Source of the DNA: an uncultured Gemmatimonadaceae bacterium
Lineage (GTDB): Bacteria > Gemmatimonadota > Gemmatimonadetes > Gemmatimonadales > Gemmatimonadaceae
Assembly: GCA_963716745.1 (NCBI GenBank)
Contig: OY970320.1
Coordinates: forward strand, 2,304,001-2,368,000
Direction of reading: 5' to 3'
Length of the DNA stretch: 64,000 nucleotides
Part shown: piece by piece, positions 18,001 to 42,000 of the stretch
How the letters are laid out: every line of letters starts with the position of its first letter
How positions within the stretch are numbered: position 1 is the first letter of the stretch
Position numbers: made by a program

Positions 18001-21000
18001 AGGATGCCGGTGTCTATGAACAACTGAAACGCTCGCACCAGACCGAGTGCGCCGGGCAGGAGACCACATCACCCGGCTATTTCGCCGCAATGGGCATCCC
18101 GGTCCTGAAGGGCAGGGAATTCGTGGCGGGCGATAACGATTCTCCATTGGGCGGCGCTGTTGTCGTGAGCAAGACATTCGCCGACCGCTTCTGGCCCGGC
18201 GAGGATCCGATCGGCAAAGGCACCGCGCCCAATGGCAACGGCAAAGGCCCGTTCTATCATGTGGTCGGAGTCGTCGGCAATGTCCATATCTCCAGCCTCG
18301 ACGGCGAAATGGCCAACGCGATCTATTATCCCATCGTCGCGATCCCGCATACCGGGCAATGGTTCGATGGTGAAATGGCCCTCGTCATCAGAACAACGCG
18401 CGGCAGCCCCGATTCCTACCTGAATGCGGTCCGGCGTGCCGTCGCCGAAGTCGATCCGGCAGTCCCGATCGCGAACGCGCAGGAAATGGAAACGGTCGTC
18501 GCACGTTCAATGAGCCGCCTCACCTTCACGATGACGCTGCTCGGCGTCGCCGGCGTCACGGCGCTCCTTCTTGCCGCGATCGGATTATACGGACTCATTG
18601 CCTACATAGTAGAACGTCGCACGAACGAGATCGGCGTTCGTTTGGCACTCGGCGCGCAACCGATACAGGTGGAAGGAATGGTCGTGCGCGGCGCGATGAA
18701 GCTCACGATTGCAGGATTGGCCGTCGGAGCCGTTGTCGCGCTCCTGTTCTCGCGATTGCTCGGCTCACTCTTGTACGGAATCGCACCGTGGGATTTTGGA
18801 GCATATCTCGGCGCGATCGGAGTGCTCGGAGTTGTGGCGTTATTGGCGGGGTGGGTGCCGGCGCGGAGAGCTGGTCGGATCGATCCGGCGGTGGCGCTGC
18901 GCTCGGAGTGACGGGCAACTGCGTTCCACCCACCAGCGCCGGTAGCGTTGCAGTCAACAGTAAACTGTCACGAGTACCTGCCAGTCAACAGTCTACAGTC
19001 AACAGGTCACAGAAAACCGTTCCACGTGCGCCAGGAGCTGCCGTCGCGCTGAGCCGATTTCTGTGAGCTGTTGACTGTTGACTGTTGACTGGCAGGTACT
19101 CGTGACTGTTTACTGTTAGCTGCCGCCTTCCCAGCCTGGTGGCCGAAGTCTTTTTTCAGTATCGCGGGTAATACTGCACTATCCCTCACCATAGTAGGCG
19201 CCCCATGCATCTCCCAAAGTCCTCCCTCCTACTCACCGCCCTCGTAGTCGCCGCCTGCAATAATTCAACAACCCCAACCTCACCCGCCGCGAGCAGCGCG
19301 GCACCGGGCGACACAACCCACGTCGCGCCGAATACAATAATCCTTTCCGGCCACGTCTTCGCCATGCAAGCGACTCCCGCCGCGATGGGATCGGATACGC
19401 TGCACTATATCCCCATCGCGAACGTCAGTCTGCGCTTGATGCATAATATTCTCGTGAACGGCAATTCCGCGCAGGAGCTTGCGGGCAATGCTATCTCCGC
19501 GGCGGACGGCAGTTATCGATTCCCGAATCTCCCGAGCGGCTACTATGTCCTCTACGCCACGCCGTCGAGCGCGTCGGGATATTCTGGATCGTATTCGTTG
19601 GTGCCGGGCCAGAGTGCTAGTACGGTTGTGGATGTATTCGTCTGGAAGAATTGACGAGAAGCCAACTGCGGCCTGACCACTTGCCGTCACTAGCTTGCAG
19701 AAAACAGTAAACAGTCACGAGAACTGCACCGCAGTCTACAGTCAACAGTCAACAGCTCTCAGAAAACGGCGCTACGTTGAACCACTTTCTGTGACCTGTT
19801 GACTGTAGACTGTAGACTGGCAGTCACTCGTGACTGTTTACTGTTCCCTGCCGCTTTCCACCGGGTTCGGAGCCGAACGCAGTTGCCCTCCCGCCTTGCG
19901 CCGAGAAGGGATATATCGCCTCTTTCCTGAGCCCTTCTCCCTCAGGATCGCGACAAGAACCTTGCCCGATAAACCACCTCCCCGCCGCTCAACCACTCGC
20001 CGCTCCACCACCAGCCGCGCGAGCACGGCCGCGCGCCTCAGCTCCCAACGTCTCCCGGCGATCGAACCGGAGGCGGTGGAAGCGAAAGTGACTTGGCGTC
20101 AAATGCTGCGCCCGGTGGCGATCGTGGTCGTTGGCGTCCTGCTCTGGTGGCTCGGACTCGGCGGCGTGTACGGCAGCACGATGTTCATCGTGCGCTGGAT
20201 CGGGATCTTGCTGGCGATCGCGGGCATCGTGATGTGGGCGCGCATCGCGCCGCCGAGTCATCTGATGACGTGGGGCGCGCTGTTTCAGCTGCCGTTCGTG
20301 GTGAACGCCGGTCCGTTGCTCAATACCAGTACGACGCTCTTGGGATTCACCATCCCGATCGTCCCCATGATCGGCATCGCGCTGCTCATCGCCGGCTTTA
20401 CGCGCTGGGCACGCGGCGAGGATAGTTGGTTAACGCGGAGATATTAGTCCGAGCAGCGTGTGTATGTAGGAATGATTAGAACGGCCCCGGCAATCGCATG
20501 CGCGGGGCCGTTGTCGCTTCCGGACGTCTGGCGGCGAGCAGTGGCTCGGTCGGAACGACTGAATATCTCGTCAAACACGCGTCAGACTATCGGAGCCTGC
20601 CTCCGTTGCAGCGCTCTAATCCGGCCGGTGACGAGTCGGTGACGCCTATGTCGTATCGATTTTCCACATTAAGGACCGAATAATTGCGAGAGCGCGGTCA
20701 TAGGTGAACCTACTCTAATAGTAGGACCTTTCGCGCCGTTGCTCCGGTAGCTATTGTGCGCCCCCACGGAGAGAGGTTAGTCCCGAAGCGAATGTGCAAG
20801 TTGCGAGTCGCTGTGCATCACAATGGGAGGAAAGATGCTGAAGCCTCAGGGACATTTCGACGAAGGGCCTGAGCCGAGCATGAGAAGATCCCACGACGAC
20901 CCGCGCCCGTGCACTCGTGCGCGCGAGACATTCGACTGCGATGATCCCGTTTGCCTCAGTGAGGCATTTCGCGGCGTACTCGACGAACTGCGCCGTTACG

Positions 21001-39000: not shown

Positions 39001-42000
39001 ACGGGCACGATCGCGTTCGCCGGGACCTACGATGCCTCACATCGCCTGACGCAGGCGATCGACCGGAGCGGCACGAACACGTGGCTGAGCCGCTACGACT
39101 TCGCCGGCAAGCTTGCATCGGACAGCACACCGGCCGTATGGGCGGATAGCACCACAGCCAGAATCGGCGGACGTTATCATTCGCTCCAATCGGCCTTCCT
39201 CATCGACCCCGCCTCTGGGAAGGGCACGGCAGCGAACGCCGCAACTCCCGTGCTGGAGGATAGCATTCGCGTGGCGGTCGTTTCGCCAAGCGGCGATTCT
39301 GTGCGATACGCCCTGGATCGGTACGGGGCACCGACGATCACCGACATGCCGAATCAGAAGACCACGATCGTGACCGCGCGGAACCCCGACGGCACGGTGT
39401 ATCACTCGATCACGACGGCGCGGGGAAGGGTGGTCTCCACGATCTGGACGTGGTGGGTCAACGGCCAGGTGATCACGACCACGGACAGCATCACAAACGC
39501 GACGATCGTCTATACATACGACAGTAAGTACGGTTTACTGACGGACGTCGGTGGGAATACGACTCCGGTAAAGAACTTCCTGAATCTGGCAAAGAGCTGG
39601 GTAGACAGCACCCGCACCGGAACGTGTGGCGCATGCACCGACAGTGTGACGCGGTACTCGCACGAATCGCACGGCCGGCTTAACAAACTCATCGATCCGC
39701 AGCTCGACACCACGGTGTACACTTTCGACACGGCGAGCGCAGGATTCAAGAATCTGCTCTCGACTCGGCAGGGCCCTCATACCACCACTCTCCGGTACGA
39801 CGGGTATGGTCGAGCAGTCCGTGTGATCAATGCGCGCGGAGACAGCGCGATCGTATCGCTCGACTCGCTCAATCGGACCAGGAATGTGAAGGGCCCGCAG
39901 GGCAGCATTGTGTCATACACTTACGACCCGCTCTTCCTGCGCACCGTCACGGACGCGAAGAGTCAGGTTTATTCGTACTATCGGAATGCGCTCGGCTGGA
40001 TGGACTCCGTGGTGAATGCGAACACCGGTGACCCGGCCGCTAATCGTGTGGATAAGTACGAGTACAGCAAGCTGGGGCTGACCAAGGCGCACATTAACCG
40101 TCGAGGTCAGCGCACGAGCATGACCTATGACCAACAGGGCCGCCTGCTCACGCTCAACCTTGCGGGTGGACGCGTCTCGAACTTCGCGTACGACACAGCG
40201 GGTCTCTGGGCGAAGGCCTGGAACGGAGAGTCGTTCGACAGTATACGCACGGACAGTACGGGCCTCTGGACGGTCCAGTACACGAAACGTGGGACGCACT
40301 GGTTCACGGACAGCTCCACGGTGGATATCACCGGTTTGCCGCAATCGTTCACCGTCAAGGGGGAGACCAGCACGTTGTCCGCCATCACGTATGGCTACGA
40401 CTCGAATCGACGTCTTAATTCGATGACGGTCGACGGTAAGCTCACGAGCTTTGTCCACAACCGCGATGGCATGCTGACTTCCCTGAGTCTCCCAACCTCA
40501 CCGCAGCAGACCATCGGTTTTTCAGTCACGCGCGGCCACGAGGACTATTCAGTAACGTACTCGAAGCCGCCGAACACTCTCTACGATCAGCTCGCTGCAT
40601 ATCTCAACTTTGACTCGCTCGGCCGGATCCGTCAGCGGATCAAGCTGCGCCAGGATACGACAAGGTCGTACGCGTACGATTCGGTCGCGCGACTGACCAA
40701 TTATCAGGTCTTGCAGGACACCTCGGCATTGAGCTGCCTCGTCGATGCCGCGGGCTTCGCGGGAGAGCGTTGCACGAGCGCGCACGGCGAGAAAGTCCTT
40801 TCTCAAACGACGTTCACATACGACAGCGTCGGAAACCCGACCGATGGCGGGGCGACAGTCATAGCCGGCAATAGATTGACGGCGTACAATGGCTACACTC
40901 TCACGTACGACTACGACGGCAACCTGACACATAAGCACAGTTCGACGTTCGACCAGCTTCTCTACTGGAACAGCATCGGGCAGCTCGACAGCGTGAAGAC
41001 GGGTACATCGCTAGTCAGCTATGGCTACAATGCAATGGGCCGTCGCGTACGCAAGACCACGGCGACCCAGTCTCTACGCTACATCTACGCCGGCAGTCAG
41101 ATGATCGCCGAGATAGATTCGGCCACCAATAGCGCGGTTCGGGTGTACTCCTATTACGGCACGGAGCCCCCCACAGCGTGAAAACAGCCACGGGTACCTA
41201 CTATTACATATCGGAAATGGGAACAGGTCACGTCGTCGCGCTGATCGACAGCCTCAATGTGGTGAAGAATCGGTACCGCTATAGCCCGTTCGGCCAGCTC
41301 GAGGATTCGAGCGAGACGATTCTTCAATCCGATCCGCTTCGCGGGCCGCGAATACGATGCGGAGACCCAACTCTACTTCAATCGCGCGCGATACTACGAC
41401 GCGAAGTCTCCGTCGGTTCGTGTCGGAGGACCCCATCGGCCTCGGCGGCGGGATAAACCAGTATGCGTACGCGAGCAATGACCCGATCAATCATCGGATC
41501 CGTGCGGTCTATTCTGACTGTTGGACCTCGACAGGAGTGCCCCGCCAACTAGGCGTCGAAACAGACGGCAGCTGCAGTGCATGGCGGCAGCGCGGGCGGC
41601 GGGGGCGGTGGTGGTGGCGGCGCCGGCGGGGATGGTGGACACTACGATTACGAATCAACCTACCACGAAGGCGGAGCTGTTGTGGTAGGCAATACTGGTG
41701 GTATTGGGGCCTGTAACCCAAATGTAATGGTGGGCGCAGATTACAAATGGTGCAATTCTAGCGGCGGACTGGTCGCGGGGGTCAACGGATACTGGACCTC
41801 TACTCTGGCCTGGGTTGCCAATGGTGGAACAATGTCAATGCCGCAGCCAATGAGTGGCGGCGGGGGCGGCGGTGGTGGTGGAGCCGACGGAAGTTCCCCG
41901 GCGTCTAGAGAGACGTTTGGGCAATGCCTGCTCAATAAGAACAAAGGCCTCGCGACAGACTTGTTGGTGGCGACAGGCATCGTTACGCCGATTGCGTACG

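Follow-up and report, generated by a model that had tools for sequence, protein, structure and literature searches.

The window analysed here is a 64,000-nucleotide stretch from an uncultured Gemmatimonadaceae bacterium. One 21-kb unit within it holds a candidate secretion machine, its putative cargo and regulators, in the order activator 1, gspEGFHIJKLMCD, activator 2 and two Rhs genes. The features, in window coordinates, are as follows.

20823..21881, plus strand: sigma-54 activator 1 (AAA+ and HTH, GAFTGA loop, without N-terminal sensor domain); PF00158 from residue 46, HTH at 315-345
21900..21921, no strand: enhancer-like element 5' of gspE, read by eye from the sequence
22006..22021, plus strand: sigma-54 -24/-12 site of the gsp operon
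22034..23509, plus strand: gspE, secretion ATPase; PF00437 (E 1e-128), type-R clade
23493..23960, plus strand: gspG, major pseudopilin (start uncertain); TIGR01710 above cut-off, single copy in the genome
23957..25159, plus strand: gspF; PF00482, TIGR02120
25156..27267, plus strand: block of minor pseudopilins gspH-K
25156-25464, plus strand: gspH
25454-25846, plus strand: gspI, with frame break(s)
25833-26364, plus strand: gspJ, with frame break(s)
26361-27267, plus strand: gspK, with frame break(s)
27264-28448, plus strand: gspL-like, by position and weak PilN matches in homologues
28445-29038, plus strand: gspM, above the family cut-off
29035..29525, plus strand: gspC-like gene, two frame breaks; position and sequence kept in homologues
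29522..30998, plus strand: gspD, secretin (N0, one N domain, core); frame break at about 30755
30995..31973, plus strand: sigma-54 activator 2 (GAFSGA loop, HTH, without sensor domain), final operon gene; frame break at about 31200
31978..32030, no strand: enhancer-like inverted element, copy 1; six TGTCGC hexamers with about 10-bp phasing
32091..32106, plus strand: sigma-54 -24/-12 site of rhs1
32152..36987, plus strand: rhs1, intact, 1611 aa
37047..37084, no strand: 13-bp inverted repeat 3' of rhs1, terminator-like, read by eye from the sequence
37131..37183, no strand: enhancer-like inverted element, copy 2
37245..37260, plus strand: sigma-54 -24/-12 site of rhs2
37302..42230, plus strand: rhs2, paralogue of rhs1, about five frame breaks
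42275..42577, plus strand: ORF of 100 aa containing two hydrophobic stretches; by position and sequence, a candidate for the immunity protein to the Rhs2 tail

The genome-wide survey's note had described a type II secretion (T2SS) operon, gspE-G-F-pseudopilins-K/L-M-D, flanked by two sigma-54 activator genes, and profile searches bear out both parts. GspE, G, F, H, K, M and D match their own families, with GspG (168.8 bits against TIGR01710; cut-off 88.85), GspM (67.9 against NF040576; cut-off 60) and the GspK domain PF21687 (60.3; cut-off 26.2) all above curated thresholds. GspE and GspD score below the proteobacterial equivalog cut-offs, yet the GspE and GspD models rank first for them. The single operon carries a GspE ATPase, a GspF platform and a secretin. 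N-methyl motifs are present in GspH and GspJ, the GspI match is weak, and GspL and GspC were assigned by position and conservation only. The gspC-like gene between gspM and gspD, an addition to the earlier gene list, encodes one membrane helix, a Pro-rich linker and a small beta domain, and has no Pfam match. One A24 prepilin peptidase is encoded elsewhere in the genome. We also considered whether the short secretin is an adaptation to large cargo and rejected the idea: a single Secretin_N domain occurs in 8/8 type-R GspDs (type R being our name for this Rhs-linked T2SS type) but also in 4/7 other GspDs.

Each Rhs gene is preceded by a 53-bp element and then a -24/-12 site. A 22-mer begins at 31978 and 37131 (contig positions 2335978 and 2341131); the inverted copies that accompany it end at 32030 and 37183, and TGGCAC-N5-xTGC starts at 32091 and 37245, 60 and 61 nt 3' of the elements. 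The reported restriction of this element to two places held up: the 3.29-Mb genome has no further copy at up to 4 mismatches and two more at 5, and the chance expectation in the window is 0. The description of a shared sigma-54 enhancer stands for the two Rhs promoters but not for the gsp operon, which has a separate -24/-12 site and an element unlike theirs; one enhancer for operon and Rhs genes was therefore discarded. The gspE element (hexamer (C/T)GAGAC, 4 nt, hexamer, inverted hexamer) repeats the Rhs-element layout with another hexamer, and it fails the automated phased-repeat rule. TGTCGC was likewise dropped as a family-wide motif, since the hexamer differs between loci. Among de-duplicated family loci, sigma-54 sites lie 3' of 36/73 activator-2 and 19/28 activator-1 genes, against 7.7% of random windows, and the phased-element rule was passed at only 2/28 activator-1 loci. 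With rpoN in the genome, -24/-12 sites, repeat elements and activators with GAFTGA-type loops are all present, and two sensor-less activators with different elements suggest a cascade.

Rhs1 comprises a Sec signal, two Ig domains, a plug with an inserted Ig domain, a YD shell, an autoprotease core and a 204-aa tail with 12 Cys. The Ig-like N-termini claimed earlier are backed by an AlphaFold model and fold search, and the YD repeats and Rhs core by PF05593 and TIGR03696 matches. Sec signals had been claimed for both proteins: that of Rhs1 is clear when read from the sequence, and that of Rhs2, which is 50% identical to Rhs1 over 984 columns, is hydrophobic but without a basic n-region. Signal-like N-termini were found in 63/80 Rhs ORFs, against 12/128 GspE and 6/104 activator controls, and no lipobox was found among the Rhs N-termini examined. 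The DPxG motif pattern is present at 92/98 boundaries (93 if DPxGN and DPxGD are both put among minor forms), Rhs1 having a DLxG variant. As also claimed, PAAR is missing: family searches of the window genome (89.8% complete) found no PAAR or TssC families, and the N-terminus is signal plus Ig rather than that of a T6SS-delivered Rhs. Even cysteine counts, found in 165/170 tails and 46/49 scaffolds against 198/420 control ORF ends, suggest that the proteins fold in the periplasm, the compartment from which a T2SS takes up its cargo. From the signals and this parity, we infer that the Rhs proteins fold there with disulfides in scaffold and tail.

The tails are highly variable, with 141 clusters among 170 in the family. 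Matches include AHH, Tox-REase-7, Ntox21, NucA/B, Ntox44, M23, NlpC/P60 and glucosaminidase, although one tail-domain search covered 32 proteins partly hand-picked for enzyme-like tails and so yields no rate; in another, 54/63 tails had no match to a plausible toxin or toxin-associated family. Orphan tail cassettes occur at three loci (L056, L060 and L213), and downstream ORFs are tail-specific across the family. For one relative, the predicted complex of tail and downstream ORF scored 0.89 against 0.01 for the best control, with contact agreement of at least 96% and partner pLDDT of at least 89; the mark used is reached by 51/78 solved and 2/108 mismatched pairs, and passing it may reflect likeness to solved toxin-immunity pairs. 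Attempts to name the two window tails gave no identity: neither has a Pfam match or a homologue among the 170 tails, and the Atlas gave no usable match for Rhs1 and only leads under 0.9 for Rhs2, whose tail ends in a Gly/Ala-rich hydrophobic stretch between two Cys. The 100-aa ORF after rhs2 has no Pfam match, and the stretch from rhs1 to the second element has no room for an immunity ORF.

The linkage of machine and putative cargo recurs, as had been stated for other Gemmatimonadaceae, and more strongly. Across the 200 family genomes surveyed, an Rhs gene lies alongside 29/38 type-R loci and 0/73 other gspG loci, counts that include kin and are not independent; the Rhs core model was built from 41 sequences, and the gspG search missed one real locus (G058). 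In a quick-search tree, the type-R GspE sequences group as a single clade (37 rows, SH-aLRT 92; 36 rows, 97). A GspD-anchored search found Rhs genes at 58/79 loci, and at 35/40 where at least 8 kb lay downstream. The linkage occurs in tandem, divergent and convergent arrangements. It extends to other families of Gemmatimonadota; outside the home family, 15/16 genomes with type-R gspD carry Rhs, 11 of them within 20 kb. Homologues are commoner than the 19 of 151 family genomes given before, being present in 60/200. In the phylum of G445, 40/250 genomes match, mostly through generic YD repeats at no more than 202 bits against 400-630 in Gemmatimonadota, and plasmids gave 7 weak records. None of the papers found by literature search describes gsp operons with linked Rhs genes.

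The pairing has exceptions. At least three near-complete genomes (G241, G273 and G294, 96-100% complete) have a single secretin and lack gspG, yet have intact signal-bearing Rhs genes. No type-R T2SS match was found in G020, G044 and G166, and outside the home family 16/31 genomes with Rhs have no type-R gspD match. In G030 the operon is present without the Rhs core, and G198 has Rhs only elsewhere. Many Rhs loci stand alone, some with a retained activator or gspE stub (L162, L165 and L167), and presence is patchy, with 0/4 same-genus genomes positive. Five shorter regions around T2SS-less and multi-Rhs loci were also read. Thus, of the earlier claim of a T2SS dedicated to Rhs export, the pairing stands firmly, and ‘dedicated’ is a better description of the T2SS's tie to Rhs than of the Rhs genes' tie to the T2SS, given intact Rhs genes in near-complete genomes without the T2SS.

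We consider it reasonably likely, at a probability of roughly 0.65, that folded Rhs toxin cocoons leave the cell through a T2SS dedicated to them, with a sigma-54 cascade of two steps in control. Activator 1 would turn on the gsp operon from its sigma-54 promoter; activator 2 would then turn on the Rhs promoters via their shared element and, as it ends the gsp operon, the machine would be built before the cargo. The Rhs protein would cross the inner membrane by Sec and fold in the periplasm as a disulfide-bearing YD cocoon, inside which a DPxG autoprotease, by homology, would cut the variable tail. Export through the type-R T2SS, which we infer from the linkage, would push the folded cocoon through GspD. 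Outside the cell, the Ig stalk may bind a surface and the tail attack a neighbour's wall, membrane or nucleic acid, with the gene after each tail giving immunity.

Alternatively, the Rhs proteins may be linked to the T2SS without being its substrate, leaving the periplasm in vesicles, by lysis, or through the PilQ secretin or a different T2SS, while the type-R T2SS and Rhs genes share a mobile island and regulon and the machine exports other cargo. Intact Rhs genes where the genome has a single secretin and lacks gspG, the many stand-alone loci, the Rhs-free operon of G030 and the patchy distribution all favour this. Yet the linkage survives three arrangements, which mere co-transfer does not predict; no other conserved gene was seen in the flanks inspected, non-systematically; stand-alone Rhs loci with an activator or gspE stub are as expected of offshoots; and absence by gspG search is tempered by the locus missed in G058. 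We regard this alternative as distinctly unlikely. Smaller still is the chance that the T2SS exports Rhs proteins that are mostly teneurin-like surface adhesins or kin-recognition tags rather than weapons. Residues 211-647 of the Rhs1 model do align over more residues with teneurins and a bacterial teneurin-like protein (TLP; 331-354) than with T6SS Rhs proteins (263-276), the stalks vary between Ig and RCC1 across the family, most tails searched match no toxin family, and rhs1 lacks an immunity gene. Against this stand the known toxin domains, the tail-specific downstream ORFs, the orphan cassettes, the conserved DPxG boundary and the predicted toxin-immunity complex; moreover, bacterial TLPs are themselves described as toxins in the parts of PMC13018210 consulted.

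That the operon builds a surface pilus, with Rhs as an associated regulator or tip in the manner of Bdellovibrio Bd0109, is very improbable. Three of the five Bdellovibrio RHS genes adjoin pilus genes, according to passages of PMC3818213, but here GspG, GspK and GspM pass T2SS-specific cut-offs, the operon is without PilT, and the same genome has separate PilB/PilC/PilQ-like genes. Independently of these readings, the locus could be a decaying relic that no longer works in this strain. Frameshifts, noted earlier in the second Rhs gene and some gsp genes and here located in gspI, J, K, C and D and activator 2 as well as rhs2, number about 6 across 10 kb of operon and about 5 across rhs2. For comparison, 10 were counted over 40.7 kb in the control genes, a set that misses heavily broken ones. 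However, 8/27 control genes elsewhere in the genome and rpoN are also broken, the breaks read are indels, and both promoters and rhs1 are intact. The frameshifts are probably assembly errors, and decay is unlikely.

If export by the type-R T2SS is correct, interbacterial competition would be added to T2SS functions at phylum scale, a T2SS would carry a cocoon of roughly 170 kDa, and Gemmatimonadota would hold a reservoir of mostly unannotated toxin tails. Most of what is known of Gram-negative Rhs toxins concerns T6SS or Tc cargo, and the outer-membrane step of signal-peptide Rhs toxins is assumed, whereas this locus names candidate machine, cargo and regulators together. A bolder idea, possible but doubtful, is that type R represents a kind of interbacterial weapon not recognised before, in which a T2SS has become specialised for delivering toxins. 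Sealed, disulfide-stapled cocoons would then be loaded in the periplasm and pushed out, the Ig stalk displaying them for target contact, and unplugging or disulfide reduction would free the tail. Type R would thereby provide the Sec-signal YD-shell toxins of diderms with an outer-membrane step, the part so far missing, and sequence drift in the activator-enhancer pairs would keep co-resident copies insulated from one another.

Several known systems share parts of this design. Cargo-dedicated secondary T2SSs, for example Hxc/LapA, Txc/CbpE and Stt/PnlH, likewise have an extra T2SS cluster adjoining its substrate and an own regulator; each of these exports a fixed enzyme or binding protein rather than members of a polymorphic toxin family. 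The T2SS/Sec-dependent polymorphic toxin class of Zhang et al. 2012 (PMC3482391) has the same signal peptide, RHS repeats, variable toxin tail and immunity gene, but in the sections consulted takes the Sec route by default and lists no signature neighbourhood genes, whereas here the neighbourhood is a complete, monophyletic gsp operon with two activators. Bcn-A of Xanthomonas perforans, a 1,398-aa antibacterial Rhs/YD protein with an immunity gene, is found in the supernatant, and an xpsD mutant loses its activity, which makes it a precedent for an Rhs protein that depends on a T2SS. That T2SS is the housekeeping Xps system, through which proteases are secreted too; the five-gene Bcn-A locus is without gsp genes, and passages of PMC7259588 report no signal peptide for its ORFA.

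T6SS PAAR/VgrG-Rhs effectors (RhsA 7q97, RhsP and Tse15) share the YD cocoon, DPxG aspartyl autoprotease, plug and variable tail, judging from part of PMC8765631, whereas here there is no PAAR, VgrG or T6SS, and instead a Sec signal, an Ig stalk, an Ig-inserted plug and paired cysteines. Bacterial TLPs (9ifo), as portrayed in PMC13018210, combine Sec signals, variable adhesion domains, an FN-plug-like domain, a YD-shell toxin and immunity genes, and excerpts of that paper have its authors seeing no obvious delivery machinery. The predicted Rhs1 model also carries an FN-plug-like domain on its YD shell and matches 9ifo with Z 22.1 and rmsd 3.9, its 331 aligned residues spread across about 740 TLP residues. 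Unlike the TLPs, the present proteins are T2SS-linked and have no lipobox or NHL propeller, the plug of the Rhs1 model running straight into YD strands and no NHL Pfam match being found. Finally, RpoN/Sfa2 control of the P. aeruginosa H2-T6SS and scattered vgrG islands offers, in the portions of PMC8855297 consulted, a cluster-encoded sigma-54 activator that coordinates a machine with dispersed toxin loci; here the machine is a T2SS instead, and two sensor-less activators with different elements take that place.

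The operon and both Rhs genes form one block of the window:

20823-42577, forward strand: whole locus, running from a first sigma-54 activator gene through gspE-G-F-H-I-J-K-L-M-C-D and the second activator gene to rhs1, rhs2 and an ORF of 100 codons

Family and profile matches bear out the layout described in the genome-wide survey's note, a type II secretion (T2SS) operon flanked by two activator genes and followed by two Rhs genes, with GspG, GspM and the GspK domain passing T2SS-specific cut-offs. In the genome, one contig of 3.29 Mb that is 89.8% complete, the locus holds the sole gspG and the sole Rhs pair detected; prepilin peptidase and rpoN were both found, and PAAR and TssC were not detected; the note had found the two Rhs proteins to lack PAAR. 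The frameshifts it reported in rhs2 and some gsp genes are present (gspI, J, K, C and D) and extend to activator 2. Control genes elsewhere in the genome are also broken (8 of 27, with 10 changes in 40.7 kb), as is rpoN; the rate in the locus is two to three times that of the controls, a set from which badly broken genes drop out. Assembly error is the likelier cause of the breaks.

On one side of the locus, imperfect GTTGACT/AGTCAAC-type repeats that look like a dispersed repeat element (19066-19115 and 19690-19845) enclose a 149-aa lipoprotein-like ORF (19205-19654) with a carboxypeptidase-regulatory-like match. On the other, the reverse strand of 42763-46486 carries a lysine 2,3-aminomutase-like radical SAM gene alongside a GNAT gene and a pair of ATP-grasp genes; the group looks frame-broken and, judging from its content, may be a cluster for a beta-amino-acid peptide. 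At 46973-47383 an ORF of the four-helix-bundle 23S rRNA-IVP family adjoins a truncated-looking thyX.

The linkage of this T2SS gene order (type R) to Rhs genes is close to certain. Among 200 other genomes of the family, residues 201-500 of Rhs1 matched 60 and GspG matched 91 (112 genes); 25 gspG genes in 22 genomes lie at most 20 kb from an Rhs gene, and the arrangements seen are tandem, divergent and convergent. The 111 gspG loci fetched, that of genome G033 being left out, fall into three main gene orders, and 38 have the order of the window. Of these 38 loci, 29 have an Rhs gene in the DNA retrieved around them, against none of the 73 other gspG loci (49 of the 73 at least 15 kb long, some of the 73 lone gspG genes), and the claim that the T2SS-activator-Rhs layout recurs in relatives is thereby upheld. 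Seven type-R loci without Rhs stop at a contig edge; two have long flanks, in G030, which has no Rhs core anywhere in its genome, and in G198, which has Rhs elsewhere. In a GspE tree of 85 rows, built by a quick search only, all 37 type-R rows form one clade with 47 others outside (SH-aLRT 92, or 97 after removal of one long branch). The other gspG loci of the family (L067-L147) show at least two further orders, G-F..K-L-M-D-E and K-L-M-D-E-F-G, besides a small E-G-F..M-D variant (L090, L115) and the lone gspG genes; no Rhs was detected at any of them.

A search of 185,579 genomes with GspD alone, partly overlapping the family sample, yielded 94 relatives, the closest carrying the Gemmatimonadota label. 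Among the 79 loci kept (77 with that label), Rhs is present in 58, and in 35 of the 40 having at least 8 kb downstream; an activator gene follows gspD in 58 of 69. The Rhs family occurs in 4 of 12 families of a 300-genome phylum sample, a tally that includes G347. Outside the home family (230 genomes, G347 excluded), 16 genomes have gspD at type-R level (at least 295 bits, a threshold set after viewing the scores), of which 15 carry Rhs and 11 have it within 20 kb. Two hits of the GspD search bear other labels: L224 in G446, a type-R gspD with two Rhs genes on a contig labelled Gammaproteobacteria, and L191 in G445, a type-R gspD on a 2.9-kb contig labelled Polyangiaceae; these reflect either binning error or transfer.

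The association is one-sided: the T2SS is almost always found with Rhs, whereas Rhs often occurs without the T2SS, since 16 of 31 Rhs-bearing genomes outside the home family have no type-R gspD match. No such match was obtained in G020, G044 or G166 either, and G241, G273 and G294, which are 96-100% complete, have one secretin, no gspG and full-length Rhs with signal-like starts. Some stand-alone Rhs loci retain an activator gene or a remnant of gspE, and a real T2SS locus in G058 was missed by the gspG search; loss and incomplete assembly thus account for part of these cases, though not demonstrably all.

Regarding regulation, the same 22-mer and its inverted copy stand before both Rhs genes, as the note had reported, each followed by a -24/-12 site (60 and 61 nt downstream); there is no other copy in the genome at up to 4 mismatches. 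Judged by the consensus, an IHF-like site lies between element and promoter. A third -24/-12 site (22006) is upstream of gspE, and the element before it (21900-21921) has the layout of the Rhs element with a different hexamer; the proposal of one enhancer common to operon and Rhs genes is therefore dropped. A sensor domain would not fit into either activator: the AAA+ domain of activator 1 begins at residue 46 in the window and, in 71 of 72 loci, the Walker A motif of activator 2 comes just 35-77 codons after the GspD match ends. Sites of the -24/-12 type follow 36/73 activator-2 and 19/28 activator-1 genes (7.7% in random windows), and phased inverted hexamer elements follow 24/73 and 2/28, respectively (random, 5.2%), with a hexamer that varies from locus to locus. 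Since the window's element also precedes rhs2, 5 kb from any activator gene, it goes with Rhs promoters. The position of activator 2, the final gene of the operon overlapping the gspD stop, points to a cascade whereby activator 1 would switch on the machine and activator 2, which in turn would switch on the Rhs cargo; from promoter sites and gene order, such a sigma-54 cascade is plausible, at slightly better than even odds. A repeated hexamer of its own lies just after an activator gene in each of L032, L043, L050, L052, L053, L056, L063 and L162; in L050 and L052 the activator-1 proteins have an RKxxH recognition helix and the repeated hexamer is TGTAAC at both loci, a hint that helix and enhancer co-vary.

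As the note had stated, most homologues have signal sequences: a signal-peptide heuristic was positive for 63 of 80 long Rhs ORFs (some misses being broken or start-truncated), versus 12 of 128 GspE and 6 of 104 activator ORFs, and for 61 of 88 database proteins; none of the long ORFs scored had a lipobox. The Ig-like N-terminus is supported for Rhs1, whose AlphaFold model (residues 37-683, pLDDT 89.6) begins with two Ig domains matching HYDIN/VesC-type folds in a fold search (Z about 10); a plug interrupted by a further Ig domain comes next and leads into the YD shell, of which the model covers the beginning. Homologue stalks differ, having extra Ig domains or an RCC1 propeller. The plug/shell part resembles T6SS Rhs (Z 22.6, rmsd 2.4, 267 residues), and more residues align with bacterial teneurin-like proteins (TLPs) and teneurins (331; Z 22.1, rmsd 3.9). 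Distant plug-region relatives also occur in cyanobacterial and Streptomyces proteins of plasmid records H1-H4, and three of these proteins carry an FG-GAP repeat annotation.

The 170 distinct tails sort into 141 clusters. In a scan of 63 tails (66 collected minus three duplicates), AHH, Tox-REase-7, Ntox21 and NucA/B scored above cut-offs, and glucosaminidase and HNH more weakly; a separate scan of 29 sequences gave one credible match, a weak glucosaminidase, and hand-picked database proteins added Ntox44, M23 and NlpC/P60. HExxH motifs occur in 19 of the 170. No family was identified for the Rhs1 and Rhs2 tails in Pfam or in the 170-tail comparison, and rhs1 leaves no room for an immunity gene downstream. 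Most tails have a small tail-specific ORF downstream, and orphan tail cassettes are also present, with arrays right after the operon in L213 (five), L056 (17789-19644) and L060 (8351-9448). For one relative, a complex of the tail with the ORF behind it was predicted at 0.89 (best control 0.01), with contact agreement of at least 96% and partner pLDDT of at least 89, a mark reached by 51/78 solved and 2/108 mismatched pairs; the score could possibly reflect likeness to solved pairs.

Cysteine counts are even in 165 of 170 tails and 46 of 49 scaffolds, versus 198 of 420 among the ends of other ORFs and 44 of 93 among those of activators. Because control ends with at least two cysteines are already even in 198 of 243, the more telling point is that counts of 3 and 5 hardly occur: 47 tails have 2, two have 3, 82 have 4, one has 5 and 21 have 6. 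The first cysteine lies within 6 residues of the cut site in 127 of 170; nuclease tails have little beyond one pair there, and the Rhs1 tail has 12. This parity matches the prediction of full disulfide pairing and would imply folding in the periplasm, where a T2SS picks up its folded substrates. A cysteine is among the last 12 residues in 90 of 170 tails (22.6% expected), and many tails are hydrophobic stretches rich in Gly/Ala that two cysteines close off, with a membrane ORF next, possibly an unannotated membrane-acting toxin family.

We consider export of Rhs through the type-R T2SS likely, with a probability of roughly 0.7 on this genomic evidence. The T2SS secretin channel is about 75-80 Å wide. 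With dimensions of 86 x 65 Å for the RhsA cocoon (PMC8765631), lengthwise passage would be plausible. In Xanthomonas, mutation of xpsD costs the Rhs bacteriocin Bcn-A its activity (PMC7259588), which makes T2SS-dependent Rhs release credible and the route itself less novel. Surface or periplasm is enough for wall- or membrane-acting tails; nuclease tails would have to reach the target cytoplasm.

Zhang et al. (2012) put signal-peptide Rhs toxins in a default 'T2SS/Sec' route, a class for which the main text gives no neighbourhood signature and the additional files may list such neighbourhoods (PMC3482391), and the TLP paper sees no obvious delivery machinery for Sec-signal YD-shell toxins (PMC13018210). 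The literature searched, which covered few subscription papers, yielded no account of Rhs genes linked to a gsp operon. The coupling, in which a single T2SS clade goes together with Rhs polymorphic toxins exported by Sec and with a sigma-54 circuit of its own, is real and phylum-wide, and apparently undescribed. Its nearest regulatory parallel is the Sfa2/RpoN control of the H2-T6SS (PMC8855297); Bdellovibrio, where RHS genes adjoin pilus genes, offers a weaker parallel to the locus (PMC3818213).
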